Positions 1 through 25,237 of a stretch of DNA of 25,237 nucleotides are shown here, piece by piece; position 1 is the stretch's first letter, and every line of letters begins with the position of its first letter. Source of the stretch: Galemys pyrenaicus (lineage: Eukaryota); NCBI GenBank assembly GCA_019455555.1, contig JAGFMF010011380.1, positions 15,102,053 through 15,127,289 of the forward strand. Direction: 5' to 3'. The notes beneath the pieces were generated by a model. That model made no database searches and was not told the DNA's origin. It saw nothing but the letters and a program-made list of their open reading frames with translations. The position numbers and the translations under genes are program-made.

Positions 1-689
1 TGTTATTATTTATTATGCCACACACACATTGTTTGAACATGAGACTCACTAAACTTTCAATTTAAGAAAGACTAAGCTAAAATTCTAATGTAGCATCTGG
101 AAGAATGTTACATACTATACTGGGTGGTACAAAAATACAGTTATGGTCAGATCTATAAATGTATATTCTCCTGCTATATATTTCATTTAATAATACCCAG
201 AGGGAAAAAAGAGTCATCTTCTTGAACATACATGAAGTAATCATTTTTACTAAAAATAATCCAATCACAGTTGAAATCATGAATGTATTTTTACAGTGCT
301 GTTGACTCAATTTTCTGAAAAGCTATCACCTATCATCCTCTCATATTTTAGTACTACTACATTATTACAATTTTTGGACTGCCTACACTTATACAGATAT
401 TGATCTCATTCCATCTGAAAAAGCTGAAACCTGGAAAAGTTATATATATTTGTTCAAGATTGGAAAGCCTAGTAAGTGACATTGACACACTAAAGTCTCT
501 GGTTCTAAAGCTGTGTCTTCTGTTAATAATACCAATTCCCATTTTATTTTATGTTCTTGACATCTTAAATTGGCTTAGTGGGTTTTAGTGTTGGATATCT
601 TGAGATGGATGAGCTCTACTTAGGTGTGTTAATGAAATAACATGTAATTTTGAGATAATTTAACTTCACTTAGCAACCTGGTTTTCATT

Positions 690-780
690 TGTGCAAAATA
701 AACTAAGTATATATATATAAAATATATATATTTTATCTCATATATACTTTATATATATAATGTTTATATATATATGAGGT
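690..780. repeat. AT-rich (TA)n-like simple repeat
   Basis: It reads tatatatatataaaatatatatattttatctcatatatactttatatatataatgtttatatatatatg. Confidence 0.9.
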
Positions 781-877
781 AAAATAGTTACCAAGTATGA
801 ATATAAATTCCACTGAAAATATAATGTTTGAATTCAACCAATATGCTATACGACAAAATTCAAGAGAATTGTCTTAC

Positions 878-1034
878 CTTCAACCTCTGAAAAACTTGAA
901 GACTCGGGCCTGTCTTCTTCTAATTCAGTATTATTACAAGGATGAAAGCCCTTTATTTCATCTCCAGGTACACAAAATTTAACTATATATTTCATTTTGA
1001 CTTGATTGGTTTTATATACAACAAACTCATCATC
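878..1034 (-). CDS. PARP4: PARP4 coding exon, the most 3' one in this window (post-catalytic region)
   Basis: The minus-strand translation is DDEFVVYKTNQVKMKYIVKFCVPGDEIKGFHPCNNTELEEDRPESSSFSEVE. It matches human PARP4 ...DDEFVVYKTNQVKMKYIIKFSMPGDQIKDFHPSDHTELEEYRPEFSNFSKVED. The acceptor reads tttgctctag|GAT (plus-strand ct at 1035-1036). The donor reads GAAG|gtaagaca (plus-strand cttac at 873-877). The exon is 157 nt: 52 codons plus 1 nt. It carries the catalytic-glutamate motif EFVVY. Confidence 0.88.
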
Positions 1035-1226
1035 CTAGAGCAAACAGAAATTAATAGGTGGAAAAAAAACCTCTTTACTGGCAAATGTTTTCATAAAAAT
1101 AGAATTTCATGTTTGCTAATTTAGAAAGTACTGAATTCAGAAAGTATATACATAGTGATTATTTAAATTAAATAATAATATTTAATAAAAACAGGAGTCT
1201 CTTTGCCTGTTTCTTGACATTAATAC

Positions 1227-1410
1227 CTCAAAGTCTGTGGGGACTATGGCTTTTCTTCGAATCCCATGCACACTGTCATAACCCAGTGGTGCTTCTTTCA
1301 AGGAGAAGTCTTTCTTGTGTAATTTCATGCAATTCCCGAGGCTTACATCACTGATCACCAAAAGTCTACTGCCATCTATCTCTCCTGGGTGTGAGTACTT
1401 AATACTTGCA
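1227..1410 (-). CDS. PARP4: PARP4 coding exon (catalytic domain)
   Basis: The translation is (S)ASIKYSHPGEIDGSRLLVISDVSLGNCMKLHKKDFSLKEAPLGYDSVHGIRRKAIVPTDFE. The human sequence is STSIKYSHPGETDGTRLLLICDVALGKCMDLHEKDFSLTEAPPGYDSVHGV...TDFE. The acceptor is tttcacatgcag|T, and the donor is GAG|gtattaat. The exon is 184 nt. Its first base completes the AG left by the upstream exon to give AGT, Ser. Confidence 0.88.
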
Positions 1411-1849
1411 CTGCATGTGAAAGAAAATAAACAAACATTTATAATTTATAGTTACATGGCAATATGATTTCATTACATACAGGAAATATTGTACAAAAGA
1501 TTTTGTGGGTGGACTGTTCTGTGATTTGCTGTTACTGAAATATATCTGAAGATTCAATTTAGAAATTATTCATCTATTTATTTAAAATTTTATATAACAA
1601 CACTAGACAGTTGACCTTTGAAAAACACAGGGATTATGAGTGCTCACTCCCCAAGCAGTTCAAAATCTTTATAAACTCTTGACTCCCCCAAAACTTTACT
1701 ATATAATCTGCTGTTGTCCAGAGATGTGTTGATAACATAAACAGTCAATTAACACATATTTTATACATCATATATATTACATATTGTATTCTTTCAATGA
1801 AGTAAGCTAGAGAAAAGAAAATATCATAAAGAAAATCTTAAGATTTCAC

Positions 1850-3140
1850 ATATACCACAAAGCTATAGTAATCAAAACAGTATGGTTATTGCAATAAGAA
1901 GAGCCACATGGATGAATGAAATAGAATTAACAGTTCAGAAATAAATCCAGTTTACCACGGAGAAAGAAAAGTCTCTTCAACAACTGGCGTTGGGAAAATT
2001 GGACAGTCAAATACAAAAAACTTAAATTAGACCACTCTCACACCATACACAAAAAATTAACTCAAAATGTATTGAAGAATTGGATGTAAGGCAGGAAATC
2101 ACAGAAGAAATCATGTTTTTGGGAACTTGATTCAAAAGGCAAGAGAAACAAAAGCAAAAATAAATAAATGGGACATCAAAATTTAAAAAGCTTCTGCATG
2201 ACAAAAGAAACTATCATTAAAATAGAGATACTATGCCAAACGGGAAAAAAATTTTGCACATCATTCATCTAACAAGGGATAATATCTACAAAGCATTCAT
2301 AAAACTCAATAAAGGGAATCAATCAAGCAATTAATCAATAAAAGGGATAATATCACCCAATCAAAAAATGGGCAGAAGAGCTAAAGACATTTCTGCAAAG
2401 AAGTCATGCAGATGGCCAACAGGCACATGAAAATTGCTCACTATCACTTAACATCAGGGAAACACAAATCAAAACCCCAATGAGATACCACCAAAAAAAA
2501 CAGAAATAAGTGCTGGTGAAGGTGTGGAGAGAAAGGTCTACACTGTGTAGACTAGTCCAGTCCCTGTGGAAAACAGTATGAAGGTGCCTCAAAATACTAA
2601 AAATGTACTTATCTACCACACAATCCAATAATTTCACTCTGTAGTATCTAGGCAAAGAATAGAAAAACACTAATCTGAAGGGATTTATGCACTCCTAAGA
2701 TCATTGTAGCACTACTTATAACAGCCAAGTTACGGAAACAATCCATGTGCCCAACAAACGATGAATAAATGAAGAAGATATTGTATATAACACAAAGGAA
2801 TCCTACTCAGCTATAAAAAACAAAATGTAACCTTGCCTTTTGCCACAACATGGATAAAAGTGAAGGGGTTTATGCTGAGTGAAATATATAAGGAGATAAA
2901 TACTGGACTATTTTGCTCATATGTTGAATATAAATAAATACACAAAGAACAATCAAAAGCAAACCAATGCAAACTTCGGAAAGCTCACTATACAACTGAA
3001 GCTACTAGAGGGGGATTGTGGAGGTGAAGAAGAAAGAGGGGAAGGTACCTATGGACTATGGTGAAGATTACAGGTGTTGAGGTATGAACCTATTTCCTTA
3101 AAGCATATATTTTGCTCTAAGTTGTTATTTCAATAAAAAA
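1850..3140 (+). mobile_element. LINE-1 3' fragment (ORF2 C-terminal remnant and 3' UTR)
   Basis: It shows typical L1 ORF2-end and 3'-UTR strings. These include gataatatcacccaatcaaaaaatgggcagaagagctaaagacatttctgcaaagaagtcatgcagatggccaacaggcacatgaaaattgctcactatcacttaacatcagggaaacacaaatcaaaaccccaatgagataccac and ...caaaggaatcctactcagctataaaaaacaaaatgtaaccttgccttttgccacaacatggataaaagtgaagg... It ends in ttcaataaaaaaatgc. Confidence 0.85.
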
Positions 3141-4917
3141 ATGCTACAACTAAAAAACAAGTTGAATATTTAAAAAAGCAAGTTGTGAGAAAGATAAAAT
3201 TCATTTACAGTAATACAATGCACTTATCAATACCATAAGTTTATGCCATCTATTTATAAGAATATTCAAGTATAAATGGACCCATGCAGTTCAAAACCAT
3301 GTTGTTGCTAAGAGTTCACTGCATCACCCTTCTATTGTGCTAAATAGTGCTCAAAGTATTTTGCTCCCAGAAAGGAAGGAATTTTCCCTTCTTAATAACA
3401 AAAATATATACACACACTGTTATAGTAAATACCAGAGAGGGGAAAAAGAAAGAAAGAAAAAAAAAACCCACTCACCTAATTAGGAAAAAGTACTGAATAG
3501 ATTTAATTTTTGGCACTAAAGTTCAGAAAGAACATCAAATACTCAAATACCAAGTAAGAAAGAACTGGTCAAAGGGAATGACAACTACTGTAGTCTTATG
3601 AAGCCTTCCAAATCCAAAAGGAAAGACACAAATTTCCAATGACACTCAAATGAGAGATTTAGTTTCAGATTTTGGCAGGGATCAGCAGCTTCAATAATCA
3701 ACTTGCTTTTAGGAATATATCACAAGACAGCTTTGGAAGCAACATTTTTGGAACATGTATCTTTTTTTCTAAGATCCAGACCAAAATAAAAGTGTTTGCC
3801 AACTCTTCCTTCTTTCCTCCCTATTCCTGTTTTTCTACCTATTTCTACGTTTTCCTATCCTATGTTCCCTTTCTGTGAGTTCTTTCCCTGTAACTTACAA
3901 ACATCTTTCACGCCTTCCCATCAAGTCTCTATCCTTCAATTTTGCTCTTCGGCTTTCTCATTCTACATCTCACCACACTGCCCACAGAGCTCAATGATTC
4001 CCTGACACATTCTTGAAACTACTGGCAAAAGAACTTCAATTTGGTTAAATTCAACTGAATTAAATTAAATAAAAAAATCAGAATGCTTAAAATTTTTTAT
4101 TTTGAAATAGTTTGTGCATAGGAAAAAGCAATTACAATTTTTAAGTTTGAATAATAATAAGACAAACACCCACATAGGTACTACCTACTTTAAGAAATAG
4201 AAGACGATCAATATTTCTATTTTGTTTCATCACAACACCTTCTTTGCCATCCAGAAGTAATCTAATGACTATCTTGATTTTTGTGCACATTATTTTCTTT
4301 CTTTTATAATAGTATTGACACATGGGTACGTGTCCTTCAACATTATAATGTTTAGTTTTACTTATTTTTGAACTTTGCACATTGAGAAAGACAAATAGTA
4401 AATTTTGCCCCATGCTATGTTCCTTAGGCCCACCCATTTGACATACGTAGCTTTTGGGTATTGTTTAAACTGCCACACAGGACTCCCTGTAGTACTACAC
4501 CAAAATGTATTGGTTATTCCTCTGCCAATGGACATTTGCATCATTCACAGTGTTCTTTTTACTAGTGTTCTCAGCCAGTCCTGTACATGGTTTATCTACA
4601 GCTAGAGTTTTTCTAAGGCCAGTGATTCTCGATCTCTCAATAGTGTATTATAATCATCCAGAGAGCCTAAAAATTATAGATAACTAAGCCTCACCCCTAT
4701 ATTTAATTGGTTTGGAGTGATATCAACACTGGTAGTGTTTAAAACTGCCCCAGATAATTAAAATGTGCAGTCTGTCGATACAACGGAAGGAGTCTGGTTG
4801 GGCACCCCCAAGTGTCCCAGAAGCTCCTCATGAACAGGGCAGTTCACCATAGCCAAGTTGGTGGGTGGTTTCACTTTCTTCCTCTTTGCCTTTTCCACAG
4901 CAAATAGAAGAAAAATA

Positions 4918-5178
4918 GGGCCTCCCTGGTGGCGTAAGGGGTTAAGCACCGCAGTATGAAGCATCCACAGCCACTGCAGCAAGAGTTCGATCCCTGGCCA
5001 GGGAGGTGACCCACATGGCGCAGCAGACCTCTCCTTCCTTGCCCACTGCTCCCCTCAGCAGTGTATTTCAGTCAGTATGCCTTTTCTGCTTCCCACTGTG
5101 TCTCTGGTGAATCCTCTTACCTCCATACCTCTGACCTGTACCCCGGTTCTTGTATGCATAAATAAATCTTTTTTAAAA
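4918..5178 (+). mobile_element. tRNA-derived SINE, copy 1, family not named
   Basis: The 5' end is GGGCCTCCCTGGTGGCG with an A-box-like TGGCG..GGGTTAAGC. A B-box-like GAGTTCGATCCCTGG follows. The conserved body contains CTCCCCTCAGCAGTGTATTTCAG and GGTGAATCCTC. The tail is TGCATAAATAAATCTTTTTTAAAAA. It is flanked by an A-rich direct repeat agaagaaaaata at about 4903-4916 and 5179-5190. Confidence 0.85.
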
Positions 5179-6098
5179 AGAAGAAAAATAAAGAAAATAA
5201 AACACTATGCAGCCAAGACTGAAAACCACCACCGCTTGCTAGTTCACAGACAATATATTAATCACAGGACTCCTAAATCCCACTATCAACTATGCTCTTC
5301 AACTATATCAGATGATTTGCATGTTCTTAATTACTAATCTTTTCAAATGGTATTGTCCATACATGTTTCCCCTTCTATTAGGTTCCTATTCATGTCTTTT
5401 CCCACTTGATTATGTCCTAGGCCTGGACCAAGGGTGACATCTAGATGTAACTTACATCTAGATCTAGATCTGAGACCTTACCCAAGTTACTTAGCTTCCA
5501 CGAGACTGTTTCTTTTCACAAAATGAAATTGTAAGGTTTACCAACTGCAAGGTTTACAGACAACATACTTAGCCTGGCCAGGCCATGTAATCAATAGTTC
5601 GTGAAGAGAAGTTTTAATATTAATGAGGATATTAAAGATACTAGTCTAGACATATAGAGTTACACACACAAGCATGTGTATAATTATAAATGTGTACATT
5701 TATTTATAACTACATATGTATGTACATATAATAAATTGTTTTGAATGGATATGGAAAAGGACAAGTAACTGTGTGACACTATATATTCACTGTCTTTTGG
5801 TGTTATATGTGATATGAGAAAACAGGACTGATCTCAGGAGGTTGTTGTAAGGATTTAGTAAGTACATGTAAAAAAGCTCCTAAGATAGAAAAATAACTTA
5901 AATGATTTCAAATATAATTTTCCCAAATGTCCACCACAAAAGACAAGCTTTTATAGTAGAATCACCAAACTGCTTTCAATGATCTGTTTCTTGGGTGAGA
6001 AATCACTCACTAAGCAAAAACAGGAAAACACAAAGTTCTCAATAATGATTCCTGGGGTTTGGGTGTTAGTAACATGAATAAGAAGATAACATACAAAC

Positions 6099-6194
6099 CT
6101 GACTGAGTCACTGAAATATATTCCACTCCCAAGATTTCCAATGTCTGTTCTTTCCACACCACGATCTTCAACTGTTTTGGGTAAAAGCAACCCA
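6099..6194 (-). CDS. PARP4: PARP4 coding exon (catalytic domain, GSGIYFSDS motif)
   Basis: The translation is (R)GLLLPKTVEDRGVERTDIGNLGSGIYFSDSV. The human sequence is RGLLLPKVVEDRGVQRTDVGNLGSGIYFSDSL. The acceptor is ctatttctttttag|TGG. The donor is TCAG|gtttgtat, which is non-consensus at +3 to +6. The exon is 96 nt. Confidence 0.85.
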
Positions 6195-6811
6195 CTAAAA
6201 AGAAATAGCCATTATAATCATTTGCTAGGGAAAAAGGACTCATATTACAGCCTCATAATTTTAACAGAGACAGGTGCCATTTCAGGACATTAAGCTACAT
6301 GAAAAAAGCTAGATACTGAAGGACAAACACTATGAACTAACTAACACGTAGAATCTAAAAAAGTCAAATTCAGACAATCAAGAGTAAAAAGGTGGTTTCT
6401 ATGAGCTGAAGAGATGTTGGTCAAATGGTAGAAATTTTCAGTTATAAGATAAATAAGCTCTGGAGATCTAATAAACAACATGTTGATTACAGTCACTAAT
6501 ACTTTATCTTATATTTGAAATTTGCTAAGAGAATAAATTTTGTAGTCTCACCACAAGAGAAAGGAGTGTAACTCTTTGCAGTGGTGAATGTGTACATTGT
6601 GATCATTTCACAATGTATCAAATCACATGTTTAAAAATATCAGTTTTACAATCAAAATATATACAATTTTTGTCAGTCATATCTCAATGAAGCTGCAGAA
6701 AATAAATATACTAACTAAAAGATAATAAATAGTATGAAGTGAAAAGAAAAAGTGAATTTCAAAGTAATGCACAGAAGGAGTTCCAGGTGCCATTAAAACT
6801 TACTAAGTACT

Positions 6812-7102
6812 GGGCCTCCCTGGTGGCACAGTGGGTTAAGCAACACACTATGAAGCAAACCTATGAAGCAAACCGCAGCCACTGCAGCATGAGTTCGATC
6901 CCTGCTGCCGGCCAGGGAGGGGACCCACATGGCACAACAGACCTCTCCTGTTGTGCCCGCTGCTCCCCTCAGCAGTGTACTTCAGTTGATCTGCCTGTTC
7001 TGCTCCCCGCTCTCTGTGGTGAATCCTCTCACCCACCCCCACACCTCTGACCTGTACCCCAGTGCTTGTATGCATAAATAAATAAATCTTAAAAAAAAAA
7101 AA
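6812..7102 (+). mobile_element. tRNA-derived SINE, copy 2, same family
   Basis: The 5' end is GGGCCTCCCTGGTGGCACAGTGGGTTAAGC. The 3' end is ...TGTATGCATAAATAAATAAATCTT(A)12. It is flanked by a perfect 14-15 bp target-site duplication acttactaagtact at 6797-6811 and 7105-7119. Confidence 0.92.
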
Positions 7103-8459
7103 CCAACTTACTAAGTACTAAATGTACTAGATAGCAGGTTTCTCATCACTGTCTTGACCCGCTGTGGGCAGTCAGTCAATTTCCCTGGCTCAAGGCTCTG
7201 CCTTCTTTACACAGAGGCCACTGTGTCCAGAGGAACAATCTCTAAGCTCAATACTGTCTGCATTTCTCTCCTGCTCAAAAACTTATGCAAGTTCCACTGG
7301 ACTTCAGCATTGAAAGACTCTCTGCCAGCAGAGTTAAACATGGTTATCTGTAGGAAGGCGGTAAAGGGAGACTTCTGTATTTGTTATACAAACATATACT
7401 GTTTGAATTTCATGGTATGAGATGAAATTAATTTTGTGTGTTGGCTTTGGGTTTTAGTTCCTCTTAGAAATGCCATTCCTAGTCACACATTATTTTTAAA
7501 AACTTCTTTCATTTTCATTGAGTATCTTTACATTTTTATTTTAATATTTATAAATCTCTGTTGCATGTAGAGTTTATCTAAGTGTGAAGAAGGGCTCCAT
7601 TTTATATTTTTCCAGACTTACCCAATATATAATATTAAAGAAATTATCTTTCATCATATGTTCAAATTTTGTATTTATTTGTGGAGTCTGTGGATTCACC
7701 TATTTATACACTATCTCACTGTTTTAACTAATTAAGCTAGATAAATTTCTTTATACTCAACTGGTGAGCCCTCCCTCATTAGTCTTGTATTCAGAATTAC
7801 TCGAATGTCAGGTGTTAAAAAAAAATTGTGCCATAGGATCAGCTTTTTATTTCTTAAAAACAATTTTTCTTGTACTTTTATTATGATAACACCAACATTG
7901 TAGATCAATTCCAGGAAAACGGGCATCCTTATGATTAGTACAAGTGTCTTTATATCCCTCACCAGCAGTTTAAAGTTTTTTCCAGCTGGATCTTTAAAGT
8001 TTCTTCTTAGGATTTAATTAAGATCCAATTTAACCATATTTCCCCTGCTCCTTAAAACTTTAATTTTAGTCTTAATATTAAGTGGCCTTTCAAAGCAAAC
8101 AGAGATTTAAACAGAGGAATCAACATAACTGGTCACTCTAATTTCTAGATTTTCCCCTAACTACTGAACTATCTTTAAATTAAAGACACATAAAGAGCCA
8201 TGAAATAGATAATATGATATTGTCTTTTAGAAGCAATTCTTATGCATGCATGACACTTCAAAGTACAGATAATGAGTATATTAAAATTATATACCTAATT
8301 ATAATTTAAAGAGCTCAGTTATCTCTGGAACTACATGAGCTAGCTGATTTTAACAGGGAGATTTATGTTGTATAGTAAAAAAAGAAAGAAAGATAAGGGT
8401 GAAACACTTCACATTTGTGAGGTGAAAAAATTTGGAAAACAAAGATAGCATACTCTTAC

Positions 8460-8597
8460 CGGGATAGGATTCCTACAAAGCTTCGTACAGGAGATCCATG
8501 CAATAAGGACTTTATATTGCCAAGCTGGCTCAAAAACTCTATGGTTTCATTTACTCGTCCAACTCTAAATATCTGCAGGATGTCCACTGGAGTTTTA
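8460..8597 (-). CDS. PARP4: PARP4 coding exon (catalytic domain, H-G-S motif)
   Basis: The translation is (S)KTPVDILQIFRVGRVNETIEFLSQLGNIKSLLHGSPVRSFVGILS(R). The human sequence is KSPVDVLQIFRVGRVNETTEFLSKLGNVRPLLHGSPVQNIVGILCR. The acceptor is aatgattacag|T, and the donor is CCCG|gtaagagt. The exon is 138 nt. Confidence 0.9.
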
Positions 8598-9001
8598 CTG
8601 TAATCATTAGAAGAAAAACCTTGAGATTTCATACTTAAAAGCAAAATTTTAAGAATTATGATTGGCAGCAGAAAACATGAAACAGCCCAAATGTCTATTA
8701 TTAGGGAACTGAGTCAATAAATCACACAAAACAACATATCTTAAAATATTACACAGAAAAAAAATATTACACAGAAATTTAAAAAATCACTGCAAAAATA
8801 AATAAGGATATGAAGTAAAACTTAAAATGTAAATTTTAAAAGTAGGTTACAAAATTTAATGCACAGTATGATTCCAAATTTTGTCAGATACAGAATATAT
8901 TCATGGAGAGAGAAAGATAAAAATCAGTAAGTTAATACCTGATTTTAAGTCCTACTAAGGAAACCAGGTTCAGAAAGAGAATAGTCGAGAAAGGCCTTTC
9001 T

Positions 9002-9276
9002 GGGGCCTCCCTGGTGGTGCAGTGGGTTAAGCAACACACTGTGAAGCAGACCACAGCCACTGCAGCACAAGTTTGATCCCTGCCCCGGTCAGGGAGGGGA
9101 CCCACAAGGTGTAGCAGATCTCTCCTGCCTCGCCCACTGCTCCCCTCAGCAGTGTATTTCAGTCAGTCTGCCTGTTCTGCTCCCACTGTGTCTCTGGTGA
9201 ATCCTCACCACCCTGGACTCTGGCCTGTACCCCAACTCTTATGTGCATAAATAAATTAATTAATTAAAAAAAAAAA
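9002..9276 (+). mobile_element. tRNA-derived SINE, copy 3, same family
   Basis: The 5' end is GGGGCCTCCCTGGTGGTGCAGTGGGTTAAGC. The tail is ...GTGCATAAATAAATTAATTAATT(A)11. It is flanked by the target-site duplication gaaaggcctttc at 8988-9000 and 9277-9288. Confidence 0.92.
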
Positions 9277-10539
9277 GAAAGGCCTTTCTTTGGAAGTGAC
9301 ATTCATTGGACCTGATGGTCTACAACATATATTTTAAGGTATGTTTAACTGGAAAATTAACTGGGTGGGGCAAAAATGGGAAGAAATCAGAATGGATGTT
9401 GCTGGGTTGGGTATGGAGATAGTATCTGGACTCAAAACTGCAGCAGGGTAAGCAAGATATTGGAGAACATATTTCGGCAGAACTGGGAGCGTGTGGTAAT
9501 GTAGCGATGAAAGAATTGACAGTGTTCCTGGTTAAGATAGGAAAGCATGGAAAATATTGGGGACTACTGGCAGAGATAGAGTTACAGGTATAGAGGAATT
9601 ATGAGCACCTACTAAGTACATCTTCTCAATTCCACGTTCAGTGGAATCCTTTTGGTAGCTTGAAATGAGCTAAGGTGAGAGTATTTATACCACAGAAAAC
9701 AGCAAAAATTATAGTTCAGAGTTTGCTGACCAGTGTATCATTGGCTGTGGAGAATAAACAATTCAATTTTGAATATGTTCTATATCAAAATGTTAACGTT
9801 AGTTAAATTATTTCTGGGATATCTTTGGGTGGTGATTTTTAATTTGAGGTGATATTTAATTTTCTTCATGTTTTTAAACTTTTAGCAAAGAACATGAATT
9901 TCATACTAGGAAAAAATTAATGTGAAAAAATAATTACTAGTGAAATAAAATGGAGAAAATCTAATTTTCACCACAGCATAATCTTGGCCCTGGGAGAGGC
10001 CTGCTTTTGTTGCAGGAATACTTTGATACATAAAGTGGTAGTGGGGGTGAGGTTTCCAAAGGCCTGCTGAGTTACACTAGCTGCCTGAACAGCAGGCTTG
10101 AATCTCTAGCTGTTTCCTCCATCACCATCTCTGGAGAAAGCTAATTACTTCCTTCCTTCACTACTACTAGTCTCTTCATTAGTATTAGAATCTAGCAGTA
10201 CCTAGGGGAGGATCAAAATTTAATCAAAAGAAATAAAAATAATTTGATCATATATAAAATCAAGATCTTCCAAAGAATCAGGAATGGATTTTTATTGAAG
10301 CAAAATTTACGTATCACAAAATTAACTACTTTGAAGTATACAGAATGGTATTTAGTACATCCAAAATGCTGTGCCACCCCTTTCTACTTCCAAAGCATTT
10401 CATCATCCAAAAAGAAAAACCATATCCATTTAGCAGCCAGACTCCATCTTCTCTCCATGGATTTATCTATTCCACATATTTCATATAAATGAAATCATAA
10501 AGTAGATGGTCTTTTGTGTCTGGCTTCTTCCACTTAGCA

Positions 10540-10790
10540 AACTGTTTTTAGGGCTCCCTATGTAGTGTCAGTATCTCCTTCTTTCTTATGGCTGAATAAT
10601 ATTCCATTAAATGCATATACCATATTTCGTTGGTTAATTTATTCATTGATAGATATTTGGGTTGTCTGCACTTTTTGGCTATTGTGAATTATGCTGCTAT
10701 GAACATTCACGCTCAAGAATTGTTTGAGTACTTGTTTTTGGTTCCTTTGGTTATACAGTCAGAAATGGAACTGCTGCAGCATATGATAAC
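10540..10790. mobile_element. Probable L1-derived interspersed repeat fragment
   Basis: The block ...ttatggctgaataatattccattaaatgcatataccatatttcgttggttaatttattcattgatagatatttgggttgtctgcactttttggctattgtgaattatgctgctatgaacattcacgctcaag... is a motif I recognise as a widely dispersed mammalian LINE-associated repeat. I cannot assign its subfamily or orientation from memory. Confidence 0.45.
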
Positions 10791-11419
10791 TATTTAATTT
10801 GCTGCAGAACAGCCAAACAGTAGCTGTGCCATTTCATGTTTTCCACAAACACTGTGGGAAGACTCTAATTTCTCTGCATCCTATCAACTTATAGTTTTCC
10901 TTTTTAAAAAAAAATAGTCACCTTAGTGGTTGTGAGGCAATACTAAGATTGTGGAACGCATATTAGCATAACAGGAATACACAGTCACTATGGAAACAAA
11001 TGTCACTGACATTTAGAGGAAACTTATCTCTTGACATGTTTTCTACTTGGTGTTTTTATGCCATGAAATGGGCATTCAATAAGCTGCCACATACCCACTC
11101 CTGCGTTCTAAGATCTTAAGAGAATTTTCCTACAAGTTATCTTCAGAACACAAAATCAAGAGTCATTTTGTTTCAAAAAATCTTACAATCAGCAAGATTA
11201 AGTAATCTTGAAATCAGAGTGGAACAGTAAATAAAGAGTGTTTTCCAGCATGGAATACAATCCCAAACTCAATTATAAACACAAAAGAAATTTATCACAA
11301 TGATGTAATTATCTTGTTATTTAGGATTAAGTTATCTAGGCAATTGTGGAGAGTAGCTCTTTAACAGAATCTGCAACAGCATTTTATAAAAACGGATCCT
11401 AACATTTTTTTTTGCTTAC

Positions 11420-11580
11420 CTGTGATTATTCTGCAATACTTCTTCTCTAACCTTGAAAAATTCTTCTGTGTTCTGTTCAACATGCTCAATTTTGCATCTT
11501 AAAGCATGGTATTTGGCAAGAGATGGTGGGTTGGGTTTGGACAAATTCGTTTCAAACACATTAACCATGTCTCTTATTAG
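11420..11580 (-). CDS. PARP4: PARP4 coding exon (PARP regulatory/helical region)
   Basis: The translation is LIRDMVNVFETNLSKPNPPSLAKYHALRCKIEHVEQNTEEFFKVREEVLQNNH(S). The human sequence is LIRDMVNVCETNLSKPNPPSLAKYRALRCKIEHVEQNTEEFLRVRKEVLQNHHS. The acceptor is tttccatttacag|CTA, and the donor is CACAG|gtaagcaa. The exon is 161 nt. Confidence 0.9.
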
Positions 11581-11824
11581 CTGTAAATGGAAATGACATA
11601 GATGTAAGTTTCACCATATACCAAAATATTTATATCACATCACACTTCCTCAGGAAGTTTGGAAAAATAAGCTTTTTTCCTCAAAGACTGAGTAATACCT
11701 ACCAATACTGTAATTAAAGTAATATCTACCAATACTATTAGTGGAGAATTAATGTTGTCCAGCAATGGACAACATATGATAACAATAATAATGTACAGCA
11801 ACTCACTGTTAATAAAGTGGTTTC

Positions 11825-12098
11825 TTTTTTTTTTAAGATTTATTTATTTATGCATACAAGCACTGGGGTACAGGCCAGAATTGTGGGGGGTGAGAGGATC
11901 CACCAGAGACAGTGGGGAGCAGAACAAGCAGATCTACTGAAATACACTGCTGAGCGGAGCAGCGGGTGCAGCAGGAGAGGTCTGCCGCACCATGTGGATC
12001 CCCTCCTTGGCCGGAGGCAGGGATCAAACTTGTGTTGCAGTGGCTGTGGTTTGCTTCATAGCATGTTGCTTAACCCATTGCGCCACTAGGGAGGCCCC
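11825..12098 (-). mobile_element. tRNA-derived SINE, copy 4, same family, reverse orientation
   Basis: It is the reverse complement of the family sequence. It starts with poly-T at 11825-11834, then aagatttatttatttatgcatacaag. It ends ...taacccattgcgccactagggaggcccc. The target-site duplication taaagtggtttc sits at 11813-11824 and 12099-12110. Confidence 0.92.
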
Positions 12099-21695: not shown

Positions 21696-22294
21696 CTAGA
21701 ATTAAAACAAAGCACTTGATTACTATTTAAAGACATTAAAAATGAGTTAACAGTAAATGCTGGGATATTAAGATTCTTGAAGATGGGTAGCATGTGCCAT
21801 GGTGTTCTTTTTTTAAGGTACCCTAAAATTAGCTATAGTTACTGATAATCTAAAGATAATATGGGGAAAGAGGAAGGGAGAAAAAAATACAAGATATCAT
21901 TACAATTCTAATTTAATAGGCATGTGAGGAGGATTCTAACATAATCTGCATGATCTGAAAGTCAATTAGGCATACAATTTCTAATGGCATTCTTCTCTTT
22001 TGGAGGTTATGGTGAGCATAGTAATAAGATGCATTTCTAACTACAGAATCATAATGCATTCCAATGCTATCACCTTACAAGTAAAGGAATCTACTTTAGA
22101 GGGAAATATAAGGGCTCTTATGTGAGGACAAAAAAGTTCTGCTTCATATTTTCTGATAGAGTAACTGTAACACTATAACATTATAAAATATAGGCATAAC
22201 TTTTAATGCCTGGTTTCTTTTCAGTTTAAATTAAGGCTTCAGATTTCAAAGATCTCCAAAGAAGACATACAGATATCCAACAGATATAAGTACA

Positions 22295-23150
22295 AATGTT
22301 CATCATCATTTATCATCAGAGAAATGTAAATCGAAACCATAAATAATGCCACCTTACACCAATGGAAAAGGTCCACAATAAAAATAACAAAACAAAACAG
22401 AATCAACAAGGGCAGTTGACATTTTGGATAAAAAGGAACACTTTTATACTGTTTTATACTATTGGTGGGAATATAAACTGGTCCAGCCATTATGTAAAGA
22501 AGAGTGGAGATTCCTCAAAAGACTTAAAATGGATCTACCATATGACCCAGCAACTCCACCCAAAGAGCACAAAAACACTATTTCAAAAAGAAACCTGCAC
22601 TCCTATGTTTATGGCAGCACTATCAACAATAGACAAGCTATGGAAACAATCTAAGTGCCCCAGAACTGAGGAGTGGATCTTTTCTGTGTATATATTTACA
22701 TGCTACACAAGATGTGGCACATATACACAATGGAATATTACTCAGCCATCAAAAAAGACAACTCCATGCCATTTGTGGCAACATAGATGGATTTAGAAGG
22801 GATTATGCTAAGCGAAATAAGCTAGAAGGAGAAAGATAAATACCTAATGGTGTCACTTACATGTGGAATCTAGAGAAACCAGACAAAGACAAATTGTAAG
22901 ACCAACCCTTAAAAGCAGAAAACAGATCTGAAACATTCAGGAGGTGAGGGGAAGCTGGAAAGAGAAGGTGAGAGCAGGAAACAGGGTGGGGGATGAGAGC
23001 ACAATGGATTGTGGTGGAGGAATCTTGGTCCATTGGTCGTAGGAAAACTATGGTGGCTACACCTAAGGAGAAAACCCTATATTGTGGGGAAAAAAAATCA
23101 ACAAGAATGTTTAAATAAATAAAAATAAATTAAAAAAAAAGTAACACCAA
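22295..23150 (+). mobile_element. LINE-1 3' fragment (ORF2 remnant and 3' UTR)
   Basis: It holds the longest ORF in the window, at 22362-22796. That ORF carries L1 ORF2 strings such as ...LVQPLWK..WRFLK.L..DLPYDPA.PLL..HKNT... and ...KQSKCP...EWI..., and a second frame reads ...YTQWNITQPSKK... It ends in the A-rich tail aaataaataaaaataaattaaaaaaaaag. Confidence 0.85.
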
Positions 23151-24095
23151 AAAAAAATATTCTGGTCAAGATTAAGTGATAATCACTATCTAAAATGAAT
23201 TGCTTTTGGTGAAATGATAAAGATGAGTTTTCCACTTTGAACAATGCCTCTAAGTTAACATAGTGTCCATTGAAGTAAGCATTACTGACATTTACACTTC
23301 GCTCATATTTTCTTTATGTGCTAAAAACAATTTTCTCTATTTAAATCATTAACAAAATAGCAAAAAAAAGATTTCAAAGATCAGCTGTATATTTGTAGTA
23401 ATTCTGAATGTGACTTTATTATCTTGGATGTTGAAAATGTTCACAGTGGAATGGAATCTGCCTATTTTGTTCAGCTACCATATTCTGAGACATCAGAAAA
23501 GTCTGGTGACAGCATTTCCAGACTATCATTTTTCTAAAGAGGCTACACCATAACAAAACATTTATTATCTAACTGATATCTAAAAGATAGCATGTGCTTA
23601 CTATAAATTGATACTTATCAGAACTGCTTAAATTTTTGATGTTACGCTTGAGGAGTATATTTTTTCCTATATACGAGGGGTTTTTAATTGGTCAGATTCC
23701 AAAGTAAAATCTGAGTTTTTAAAGGAAATATGTTTCTTAAAAAATAGCTTATTTATCACAAGAAGTTATTTTTTCCAGTCATTAAGTTGTGGTGATAAAT
23801 TTTTAATGCAAAGGTTCATCTCCTTCCAGTTAGAATTATACATCACTTTTTCTAATACTACATCAATATTTTTGTAGTCATCTGTATCTAATCACACTAA
23901 ACTGGATATTGAGAAATTTATTTCTGTTGATAACACAGTTTTTAGGCCTTCACTATTTTGTTGTTCATCTTTTGAGATATAAAAATACTATTTTCATAGT
24001 ATTTCTGGACAGTTCATTCATTGTAATATTTTTGACACATCAACATGTTTATTACTGCACCTACAATACATGAAGTGCTTGAAATAAAAGCTTAC

Positions 24096-24297
24096 CAGAA
24101 ATGTTTTCCTTTTGACCAGGAGGTGGGATGGTGTCCAGTGACTTGTCAGGATCATAATTCTTCACATCTAGAAGTCTCCTTTCTCTGACAGATTCCCATA
24201 CAAAATCTGGGTTTGCAACATGGATGTTGTTTTTTTGGACAGAGTTTAGTTGATGATGACTGAGAACATCAGTACTTTCTAAGATTACATGTGTACA
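24096..24297 (-). CDS. PARP4: PARP4 coding exon, the most 5' one in this window (end of BRCT domain and linker)
   Basis: The translation is CTHVILESTDVLSHHQLNSVQKNNIHVANPDFVWESVRERRLLDVKNYDPDKSLDTIPPPGQKENIS(E). The human sequence is CTHIILDNADVLSQYQLNSIQKNHVHIANPDFIWKSIREKRLLDVKNYDPYKPLDITPPPDQKASSSE. The acceptor is gattctttcttag|TGT, with an in-frame stop just upstream. The donor is TTCTG|gtaagc. The exon is 202 nt. Confidence 0.85.
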
Positions 24298-25084
24298 CTA
24301 AGAAAGAATCAATTCACTTTGCATTAGTAAAAACAAATTGAAATAAATTATTTATATTAATTCTGTAATTTTCACCCTTAAAAAGTCTTGTTTGAAGGTA
24401 ATTTACAATAGTATTTCTCAGATTTCTGAAGCTCAAAAATATTATATCTTCTACCCACATAAAAGTTTTTAAAAATTAGTTTTTAGTAAGTATGGATATG
24501 ATCATGGCATGATTGATTAACCAACTCTTGAGGTTGTTTCCAAATATTCATTACTATAAACAATGCTGCACTGAACATCTTTACCTACCAAATCTTTGTA
24601 TATTTGTATAATTAGTTCCTTTGGTGGAATGAGAAGTTCAAAGGCATTTAGTATTTATTATAATTTGTACTTTTATTATGTTTGAATAAAAGTAGAGCAG
24701 ACCCCTGGTTTAAGATACCAATCTGTCCTACAGATGTAGCATCTAAGCTCAATAATTCACTGATATTGCATAATTTACTCTAAAATAGCATAATTTGGAA
24801 ATTTTGGCACAAAGCTAAGTTTATATAAGACTATGATTCATAAAAAAAGACTATGATTCATAAGATAAACAACAAAAATACCAAGTATTTCATTTTTGTT
24901 GACATTAAAAAGATGGCATTATAAATAAGTAGAGTAACTTAAATTGGAAAAGGCTATTTCAAAATCTCTTAGAGTTTCTAATGGAATGGGTAGGAAAAAC
25001 AAATTCTTGTACCAGTTCACTAACTTCTCATCCCATCATTGAGCTTCTTTATAATTTCCTTTTATAATTTAATTGAAAATTTTC

Positions 25085-25237
25085 TTTTTCTTTTTTTTTT
25101 TTAAAGATTTATTTATTTATGCTTACAAGAGCTGGGGTACAGGCCAGAGTTCTGGGAGGTGAGAGGATTCACCAGAGACAGAGTGGGGAGCAGAACAGGC
25201 AGACTGACCGAAACACACTGCCAAGGGCAGCAGTGGG
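25085..25237 (-). mobile_element. tRNA-derived SINE, copy 8, same family, reverse orientation, cut off by the window end
   Basis: It reads poly-T, then aaagatttatttatttatgcttacaagagctggggtacaggccagagttctgggaggtgagaggattcaccagagacagagtggggagcagaacaggcagactgaccgaaacacactgcc... It is nearly identical to copy 6. Confidence 0.88.

Follow-up and report, generated by a model that had tools for sequence, protein, structure and literature searches.

The DNA analysed here, a 25-kb window (the whole stretch, positions 1-25237), reads almost certainly as an internal piece of the minus-strand gene for PARP4 (vault PARP, protein mono-ADP-ribosyltransferase PARP4) of a placental mammal. Between positions 878 and 24297 lie 12 consecutive minus-strand coding exons, the counterpart of human residues 45-596, each with AG on its acceptor side and GT on its donor side (24 of 24 splice dinucleotides canonical). 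Joined, they form a stop-free frame of 1657 nt, or 552 codons and one further base. PARP4 is an already known, well-studied vertebrate gene with solved structures, and the present copy is an ordinary orthologue. Its importance beyond correct annotation is small; it serves as a clean positive control in which exons called unaided were placed within one base.

Exon structure and identity of the locus

The initial tblastn guide was a human PARP4 sequence that served as a lead only, and the PDB sequence and database proteins later gave the same result. With PARP4 proteins of horse (P0001), lemur (P0002) and a cDNA-derived source (P0004) as queries, tblastn of the window returned 12 minus-strand matches and nothing more. 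These are the 12 segments that a preliminary description had proposed and expected such searches to recover, and its outer limits of 878 and 24297 are exact. The features, in order of transcription, are as follows.

24298-25237, minus strand: last part of the partial intron 5' of exon 1
25093-25237: truncated SINE copy within the intron 5' of exon 1
24096-24297, minus strand: exon 1, 202 nt, phase 0 in, 1 out; CTHVILES...QKENIS; human PARP4 residues 45-111, C-terminal BRCT half and linker
21629-21695, minus strand: exon 2, 67 nt, phase 1 in, 2 out; (E)VKTNDLSLENSTEEDNTVELT(K); donor TAA/GTAATC
20215-20290, minus strand: exon 3, 76 nt, phase 2 in, 0 out; FQSEAVEIPRFPQDFEVAKYNTLEK; tblastn match
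19081-19194, minus strand: exon 4, 114 nt, phase 0 in and out; IGADGVEETVVLELRCSQDTADPTFLISAHFLLANDIE; part of the WGR-like domain
16937-17086, minus strand: exon 5, 150 nt, phase 0 in and out; TRRQFAVKKTS...ASEKLQA; tblastn match
16297-16434, minus strand: exon 6, 138 nt, phase 0 in and out; LLLEEVISSSTLSQEVSDLVEMIWAEALGHLEHMLLNPVNSISLND; start of the helical (regulatory) domain
14993-15166, minus strand: exon 7, 174 nt, phase 0 in and out; VSKAEAVLLLAKTALKNGET...KKEDLCQ; helical domain
11420-11580, minus strand: exon 8, 161 nt, phase 0 in, 2 out; LIRDMVNVFETNLSKPNPPSLAKYHALRCKIEHVEQNTEEFFKVREEVLQNNH; runs from the last part of the helical domain into the ART fold
8460-8597, minus strand: exon 9, 138 nt, phase 2 in and out; (S)KTPVDILQIFRVGRVNETIEFLSQLGNIKSLLHGSPVRSFVGILS(R); catalytic His
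6099-6194, minus strand: exon 10, 96 nt, phase 2 in and out; GLLLPKTVEDRGVERTDIGNLGSGIYFSDSV; catalytic Tyr
1227-1410, minus strand: exon 11, 184 nt, phase 2 in, 0 out; (S)ASIKYSHPGEIDGSRLLVISDVSLGNCMKLHKKDFSLKEAPLGYDSVHGIRRKAIVPTDFE; tblastn match
878-1034, minus strand: exon 12, 157 nt, phase 0 in, 1 out; DDEFVVYKTNQVKMKYIVKFCVPGDEIKGFHPCNNTELEEDRPESSSFSEVE plus 1 nt; catalytic Glu
1-877, minus strand: first part of the partial intron 3' of exon 12

The window contains 11 complete introns of 192-4688 nt, and canonical dinucleotides are found at these as well as at both flanking partial introns. A continuous reading frame had been described for all exons except one at 21628-21695, and this holds for the others; the exception does not stand, as base 21628 is the G of the exon 2 GT donor and is not exonic. 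Moving the end of exon 2 by one base, to 21629, makes the frame continuous and thereby removes the earlier problem, and the whale orthologue of this exon is likewise 67 nt long with AG and GT at its borders.

The window lies wholly inside the gene. Its first exon starts at the codon aligned with human Cys45, and no match to PARP4 residues 1-44 was obtained in 24298-25237. At the other end, residues beyond 596 found no match in 1-877 by tblastn with P0002 and P0004, both of which reach into the VIT domain. Codons 1-44 and everything beyond codon 596 are outside the window, as are the VIT, vWA and MVP-interaction domains. The start of the collinearity at human residue 45 is as originally proposed, while the end, given before as about residue 590, has to be extended: the alignment reaches residue 596 (...FSEVE in the window, ...FSKVE in human PARP4) and the first base of codon 597. 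Each of the peptides quoted at that stage (IFRVGRVNET, LLHGSPV, GNLGSGIYFSDS and DDEFVVYKTNQVKMKY) was found in the translation.

Against human PARP4, for which the full-length chain of PDB entries 11jf/9bw6/9bw7 was the reference, the joined protein can be aligned over its whole length, gap-free, with residues 45-596; the score is 948 bits (E = 1.2e-284, far beyond chance) and 421 of 552 residues are identical (76.3%). Identity to human varies by exon, from 51-77% in exons 2-4 to 87-89% in exons 6, 8 and 10 in the alignment to the first tblastn guide, with exon 4 the least conserved of all. In a search among 5.8 billion proteins, all 53 named matches with E < 1e-30 were PARP4; they span mammals, birds, reptiles, amphibians and fish, with the mammalian ones nearest, and the PARP4 entries that this search returned were all shorter than about 960 residues.

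We also considered whether the exons might derive from PARP1, PARP2 or PARP3, which have a WGR-HD-ART core. Residues 211-500 of the joined protein do show detectable homology to the catalytic domains of these three proteins (E = 7.5e-24 to 1e-10), the best being PARP1 at the lower of these values. However, they score only 88 (PARP1), 75 (PARP2) and 44 bits (PARP3) and reach the HD-ART part only, with gaps, whereas the gap-free alignment to PARP4 takes in the BRCT half and the linker as well, 552 residues in all, and every named homologue is PARP4. The preliminary description had named a better match to another PARP paralogue as grounds for abandoning its reading; that comparison favours PARP4 instead, because none of the three paralogues exceeds 88 bits. 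An origin from one of the three is rejected on score, and we regard its probability as negligible.

Domain content and active site

The domains of the joined protein follow one another in the order expected of the N-terminal PARP1-homology region of PARP4, i.e. BRCT, WGR-like, helical domain and ART. The C-terminal half of the BRCT domain matches the human PARP4 BRCT chains 9dfq/9dev over residues 45-99 (E = 9e-23), and the Pfam BRCT and BRCT_2 profiles give weak matches to the C-terminal part of the profile, the N-terminal half of the domain being outside the window. For the WGR-like domain the sole basis is the gap-free alignment to homologues recorded with Pfam PF26166 (WGR-like_PARP4), as no direct match of such a profile to the joined protein was obtained. 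The helical domain was recognized by Pfam PARP_reg (PF02877) at residues 213-314 with 26.8 bits, exactly the cut-off of that profile, and the ART domain by Pfam PARP (PF00644) with 125.5 bits. The C-terminal VIT, vWA and MVP-interaction domains are what separates PARP4 from PARP1-3, and the MVP-interaction domain is the one that directs the protein to vaults.

The H-Y-E triad is intact, with the codons for His at 8498-8500, Tyr at 6116-6118 and Glu at 1026-1028 on the minus strand, and the three residues line up with the human PARP4 motifs and with the HGS, GIYF and NEY motifs of PARP1. The His lies in LLHGS (exon 9; LWHGS in PARP1), the Tyr in GSGIYFSD (exon 10; GKGIYFAD in PARP1) and the Glu in DDEFVVY (exon 12; YNEYIVY in PARP1). 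PARP4 has the BRCT-WGR-HD-ART region and the H-Y-E triad, yet carries out mono-ADP-ribosylation only (PMC10711553), and it is a component of the vault particle (PMC12280208).

The pre-mRNA would be processed by ordinary GT-AG splicing. The exons in the window encode the C-terminal BRCT half and the linker after it, then the WGR-like and helical regulatory domains, the complete ART fold and the first part of the linker that leads to the VIT domain. Judged by its homology to human PARP4, the protein would mono-ADP-ribosylate its targets at the H-Y-E site with NAD+ as substrate, and C-terminal domains whose exons lie outside the window would bring it to the vault. We infer this probable enzyme activity, the vault association and expression from the literature.

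Integrity of the copy, introns and mammalian relatives

The humpback whale PARP4 locus (L002; GCA_041834305.1, CM085712.1) is orthologous to the window and collinear with it through exons 2-9 and their introns, which can be aligned, at 64-81% nucleotide identity; the block most like the whale locus is exon 8 (80.7%). Whale exons 2, 5, 6 and 9 are identical to those of the window in length (150 nt for exon 5, 138 nt for exons 6 and 9) and in their AG and GT dinucleotides, and exons 3, 4, 7 and 8 occur in the same order with indels. Since at least four exons retain the whale lengths and splice dinucleotides, their flanking introns sit at the same positions, and the window shares its exon-intron structure with the PARP4 gene of another mammal. 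A processed (retrotransposed) PARP4 pseudogene is rejected outright, as introns are present: 11 of them, with GT-AG ends, interrupt the coding sequence, and at least four exons match the whale gene in length and splice dinucleotides.

Compared with a mammalian PARP4 cDNA contig (L001), the coding sequence has an overall dN/dS of 0.16 (0.14-0.23 per sub-region) at a dS of 0.67. The intact triad, this ratio and the collinearity with the whale locus, introns included, point to a functional, intron-bearing gene copy under purifying selection. The positively selected, fast-evolving part of PARP4, human exon 30 (PMC4038475), lies outside the window.

A rival reading is a PARP4 copy that is an unprocessed pseudogene or arose by a recent, partial segmental duplication; it would keep its introns while expression or the need for the product was lost. 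A very young duplicate would show the same features as those seen here; part of the gene only is in view, so that the copy might be truncated, and the window branch is slightly longer than others, with 74-76% identity to human, horse and sloth vs 76-79% among those three. Against this stand the open frame of 552 codons, the full set of canonical splice dinucleotides (24/24), the undamaged H-Y-E triad, a dN/dS below 0.25 in every sub-region as well as 0.16 overall, and collinearity through the introns with the whale PARP4 locus, and we consider such a duplicate or pseudogene very improbable.

As far as the searches reach, the functional PARP4 copy favoured here is the only coding content of the window, as had been claimed from the start. 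Additional genes or RNAs in the introns were rejected: a Rfam scan of the window at gathering thresholds returned no match, ARAGORN found no tRNA in it, and the ten longest ORFs outside the exons had no Pfam match. The non-exonic share of the window is 93%, with transposon debris throughout the introns, and includes eight copies in 25 kb of a tRNA-derived SINE of about 275 bp with an AATAAA/TCTTT-type tail. A full-text literature search with five oligonucleotides taken from this SINE found no paper, and its translated consensus yielded no candidate among database proteins. Further dispersed repeats were read as LINE-1 remnants, and an insertion occupies 18030-18950. The ratio of observed to expected CpG is 0.0-0.3 across the window, as in a methylated vertebrate genome, and the GC-rich kilobase at 18001-19000 was rejected as a CpG island or promoter (four CpGs, observed/expected 0.07).

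The PARP4 proteins of Equus przewalskii (P0001), Eulemur rufifrons (P0002) and Choloepus didactylus (P0003) align gap-free over the 552 residues with 74-76% identity, and the nearest protein found, P0004 from the RNA-seq assembly SRR31578205, reaches 80%. As identity to every PARP4 compared is only 74-80%, the comparison includes no close relative. The window grouped with horse and camel in a neighbour-joining tree (bootstrap 66%), and the sequence weakly suggests a placement within Laurasiatheria for its placental source. A bolder reading is that the DNA comes from a placental lineage with no PARP4 in the databases compared (no match above 80%), perhaps with a possibly undescribed SINE family of its own and an N-terminal region of PARP4 that evolves slightly faster than in other mammals. 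We think this unlikely; were the SINE to be lineage-specific and the N-terminal region faster, the identity of the gene would be unchanged.

Comparison with known PARP4 genes and with PARP1

The whale locus differs from the window in that its exon 7 divides into two reading frames, its exon 8 seems shorter and the SINE family of the window is lacking; the whale gene model is flagged LOW QUALITY PROTEIN and appears to carry frameshifts. The catalytic domain of PARP1 (e.g. PDB 1a26, 4hhy) resembles the joined protein in its helical domain and ART fold and in the H-Y-E triad (E = 7.5e-24), but it is a paralogue, with a score about one-tenth that of PARP4, a gapped alignment and the first 210 residues unmatched. 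The active site of PARP4 is open, whereas that of PARP1 is autoinhibited (PMC10711553). Human PARP4, whose structures also include the catalytic domain (8sx1/8sx2, 8swy/8swz) and the BRCT domain (9dev, 9dfo-9dfr), has the same order of BRCT half, WGR-like domain, helical domain and ART, and both proteins carry the H-Y-E triad; they differ at about 24% of residues, mostly in the linker and the WGR-like region.

Exon structure and PARP4 identity

The preliminary description, made from the sequence alone, had placed 12 minus-strand coding exons of PARP4 between 878 and 24297, and the exon set was recovered in full. A first human PARP4 guide sequence, which served as a lead only, gave 12 minus-strand tblastn matches from 24297 down to 879, and the database PARP4 proteins (horse, lemur, sloth and a cDNA-derived protein) returned the identical 12. 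Boundaries were set from the flanks of each tblastn match, where all 12 exons have an AG with a pyrimidine-rich tract upstream and a GT downstream. The database proteins found no match in the window to residues 1-44 or past residue 596, which places both window ends inside introns.

Coding exons, numbered within the window in order of transcription
24096-24297, minus strand, exon 1, AG/GT-bounded
21629-21695, minus strand, exon 2, AG/GT-bounded
20215-20290, minus strand, exon 3, AG/GT-bounded
19081-19194, minus strand, exon 4, AG/GT-bounded
16937-17086, minus strand, exon 5, AG/GT-bounded
16297-16434, minus strand, exon 6, AG/GT-bounded
14993-15166, minus strand, exon 7, AG/GT-bounded
11420-11580, minus strand, exon 8, AG/GT-bounded
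8460-8597, minus strand, exon 9, AG/GT-bounded
6099-6194, minus strand, exon 10, AG/GT-bounded
1227-1410, minus strand, exon 11, AG/GT-bounded
878-1034, minus strand, exon 12, AG/GT-bounded

The exons occupy 6.6% of the window, are separated by introns of 192 to 4688 nt, and join into 1657 nt (552 codons and one base) free of stops; all peptides quoted from the first reading lie in stop-free minus-strand translations. Exon 2 had been described as 21628-21695 and out of frame. The exon itself stands and its out-of-frame status does not: base 21628 belongs to the GT donor, and with this one-base correction the 67-nt exon (phase 1 in, phase 2 out) restores the frame. Its counterpart in the humpback whale PARP4 locus (L002; GCA_041834305.1, CM085712.1) is likewise 67 nt with AG and GT ends.

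Over all of its 552 residues, the joined protein matches the human PARP4 chain (1724 residues; PDB 11jf, 9bw6, 9bw7) from residue 45 to residue 596 with no gaps (421/552 identical, 948 bits, E = 1.2e-284), which bears out the proposed identity; further PDB matches are to crystal chains of the PARP4 catalytic domain (8sx1, 8swy) and to BRCT chains (9dev, 9dfo-9dfr). Named matches in a collection of 5.8 billion proteins are all PARP4. The best paralogues have far lower scores (PARP1 88, PARP2 75 and PARP3 44 bits) and cover the helical domain and ART only, which rules out a better match to another PARP. Pfam recovers the PARP catalytic domain at 125.5 bits, the regulatory (helical) domain exactly at the cut-off, and weak BRCT matches to the C-terminal part of those profiles, which fits a domain that is only half present.

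Functional constraint and the whale orthologue

The window protein keeps all three residues of the H-Y-E catalytic triad known from PARP4 (PMC10711553).

Catalytic residues, minus strand
8498-8500, His codon (LLHGS), aligned with PARP1 LWHGS
6116-6118, Tyr codon (GIYFSD), aligned with PARP1 GIYFAD
1026-1028, Glu codon (DDEFVVY), aligned with PARP1 YNEYIVY

Selection was assessed over 428 codons by comparison with an RNA-seq contig (L001, run SRR31578205), which at 80% protein identity was the nearest PARP4 coding sequence available, giving dN = 0.11, dS = 0.67 and dN/dS = 0.16, with all sub-regions at 0.14-0.23. This is in line with published work on PARP4 (PMC4038475), whose fast-evolving, positively selected part, human exon 30, falls outside the window. 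In exons 2-4 (19081-21695), which encode the linker and the beginning of the WGR-like domain, identity to human is 51-77%; it is far higher, at 87-89%, in the helical and catalytic exons. Where coding comparison was possible, residues 125-200 show dN/dS = 0.14, purifying selection despite low conservation.

The whale locus is collinear with the window across exons 2-9 and their introns (64-81% nucleotide identity), and its exons 2, 5, 6 and 9 equal those of the window in length, with AG/GT ends. Together, the triad, the dN/dS values and this collinearity indicate that the window is an intron-bearing, orthologous PARP4 copy under selective constraint. That it is instead a very recent silent duplicate is improbable, though such a copy would look no different in a window covering only part of PARP4.

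The whale orthologue itself looks damaged (L002 about 8063-8231, 11592-11747 and 19957-20103): the match to exon 7 is spread over two reading frames, exon 8 seems about 5 nt shorter, the motif beside the catalytic His reads LHRSPV rather than LHGSPV, and the NCBI model is labelled LOW QUALITY PROTEIN. Either errors in the assembly or a genuine decay of PARP4 in the humpback whale could lie behind these features.

Repeats and remaining intronic sequence

Among the repeats, eight copies of a single ~275-bp SINE predominate; they are 79-94% identical to their own consensus.

SINE copies
4918-5182, plus strand
6812-7101, plus strand
9003-9275, plus strand
13900-14133, plus strand
11825-12097, minus strand
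17719-17992, minus strand
19491-19759, minus strand
25093-25237, minus strand, cut by the window end

The tRNA-like head carries, by eye, polymerase III A-box-like TGGCGCAGTGG and B-box-like GAGTTCGATCCC motifs, and the tail reads AATAAATAAATCTTTAAAA. The element is probably not of 7SL type (Alu or B1) or a carnivore Can-SINE; its sequences had no match in literature or protein searches. Apart from one 23-nt match the family was not found in the whale locus, which marks the family as lineage-specific; it might point to the mammalian order. Dispersed repeats at 1841-2819, 21158-21407 and 22253-22887 match several sites in the whale locus; judged by their translations, they are presumably frameshifted remnants of the LINE-1 ORF2 C terminus, and overlapping, frameshift-broken ORFs at 22362-22839 resemble that region, though Pfam gave no match.

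Everything outside the exons had been called intronic, a view supported by the lack of matches to Rfam (gathering thresholds) or ARAGORN in the window and to Pfam among the ten longest ORFs outside exons. A CpG island in the GC-richer kilobase 18001-19000 was rejected, CpG observed/expected being 0.0-0.3 there as throughout the window. The stretch at ~18030-18950 (~0.9 kb, 48% GC vs about 35% elsewhere), almost without CpG, adjoins a SINE copy and lacks a counterpart in the whale intron, whose matches leave a gap from 17593 to 18957. The insertion of a lineage-specific transposon or LTR element is the probable explanation. A (TA)n microsatellite of ~34 repeats (708-775) and ~50 nt of T-rich sequence (14239-14289) are ordinary intronic low complexity.

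Relationship to other mammals and proposed function

PARP4 of human, lemur, horse and sloth is in each case about equally distant from the window protein (74-76% identity), which aligns ungapped with the horse, lemur and sloth proteins at 76, 76 and 74%, respectively; identity falls to ~50-52% for bird PARP4 (51% for one bird protein) and ~40% for fish. Neighbour joining places the window beside horse and camel at 66% bootstrap, a weak hint of Laurasiatheria, and the moderate intron similarity to the whale (about 64-75%) argues against close kinship with whales.

PARP4 has a vault-RNA-binding BRCT domain, a WGR-like domain and an open-site, mono-ADP-ribosylating catalytic domain (PMC10711553, PMC12212138), and is housed in the vault cage via C-terminal elements (PMC12280208). 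By homology, the encoded region is the PARP1-homology part of PARP4, including the WGR-like domain; its BRCT domain would bind vault RNA, its catalytic domain would have an open site and perform mono-ADP-ribosylation, and the enzyme would sit in the vault cage through its C-terminal elements. The gene, domain structure and evolution of PARP4 are already known, and the window thus adds nothing unexpected to them.
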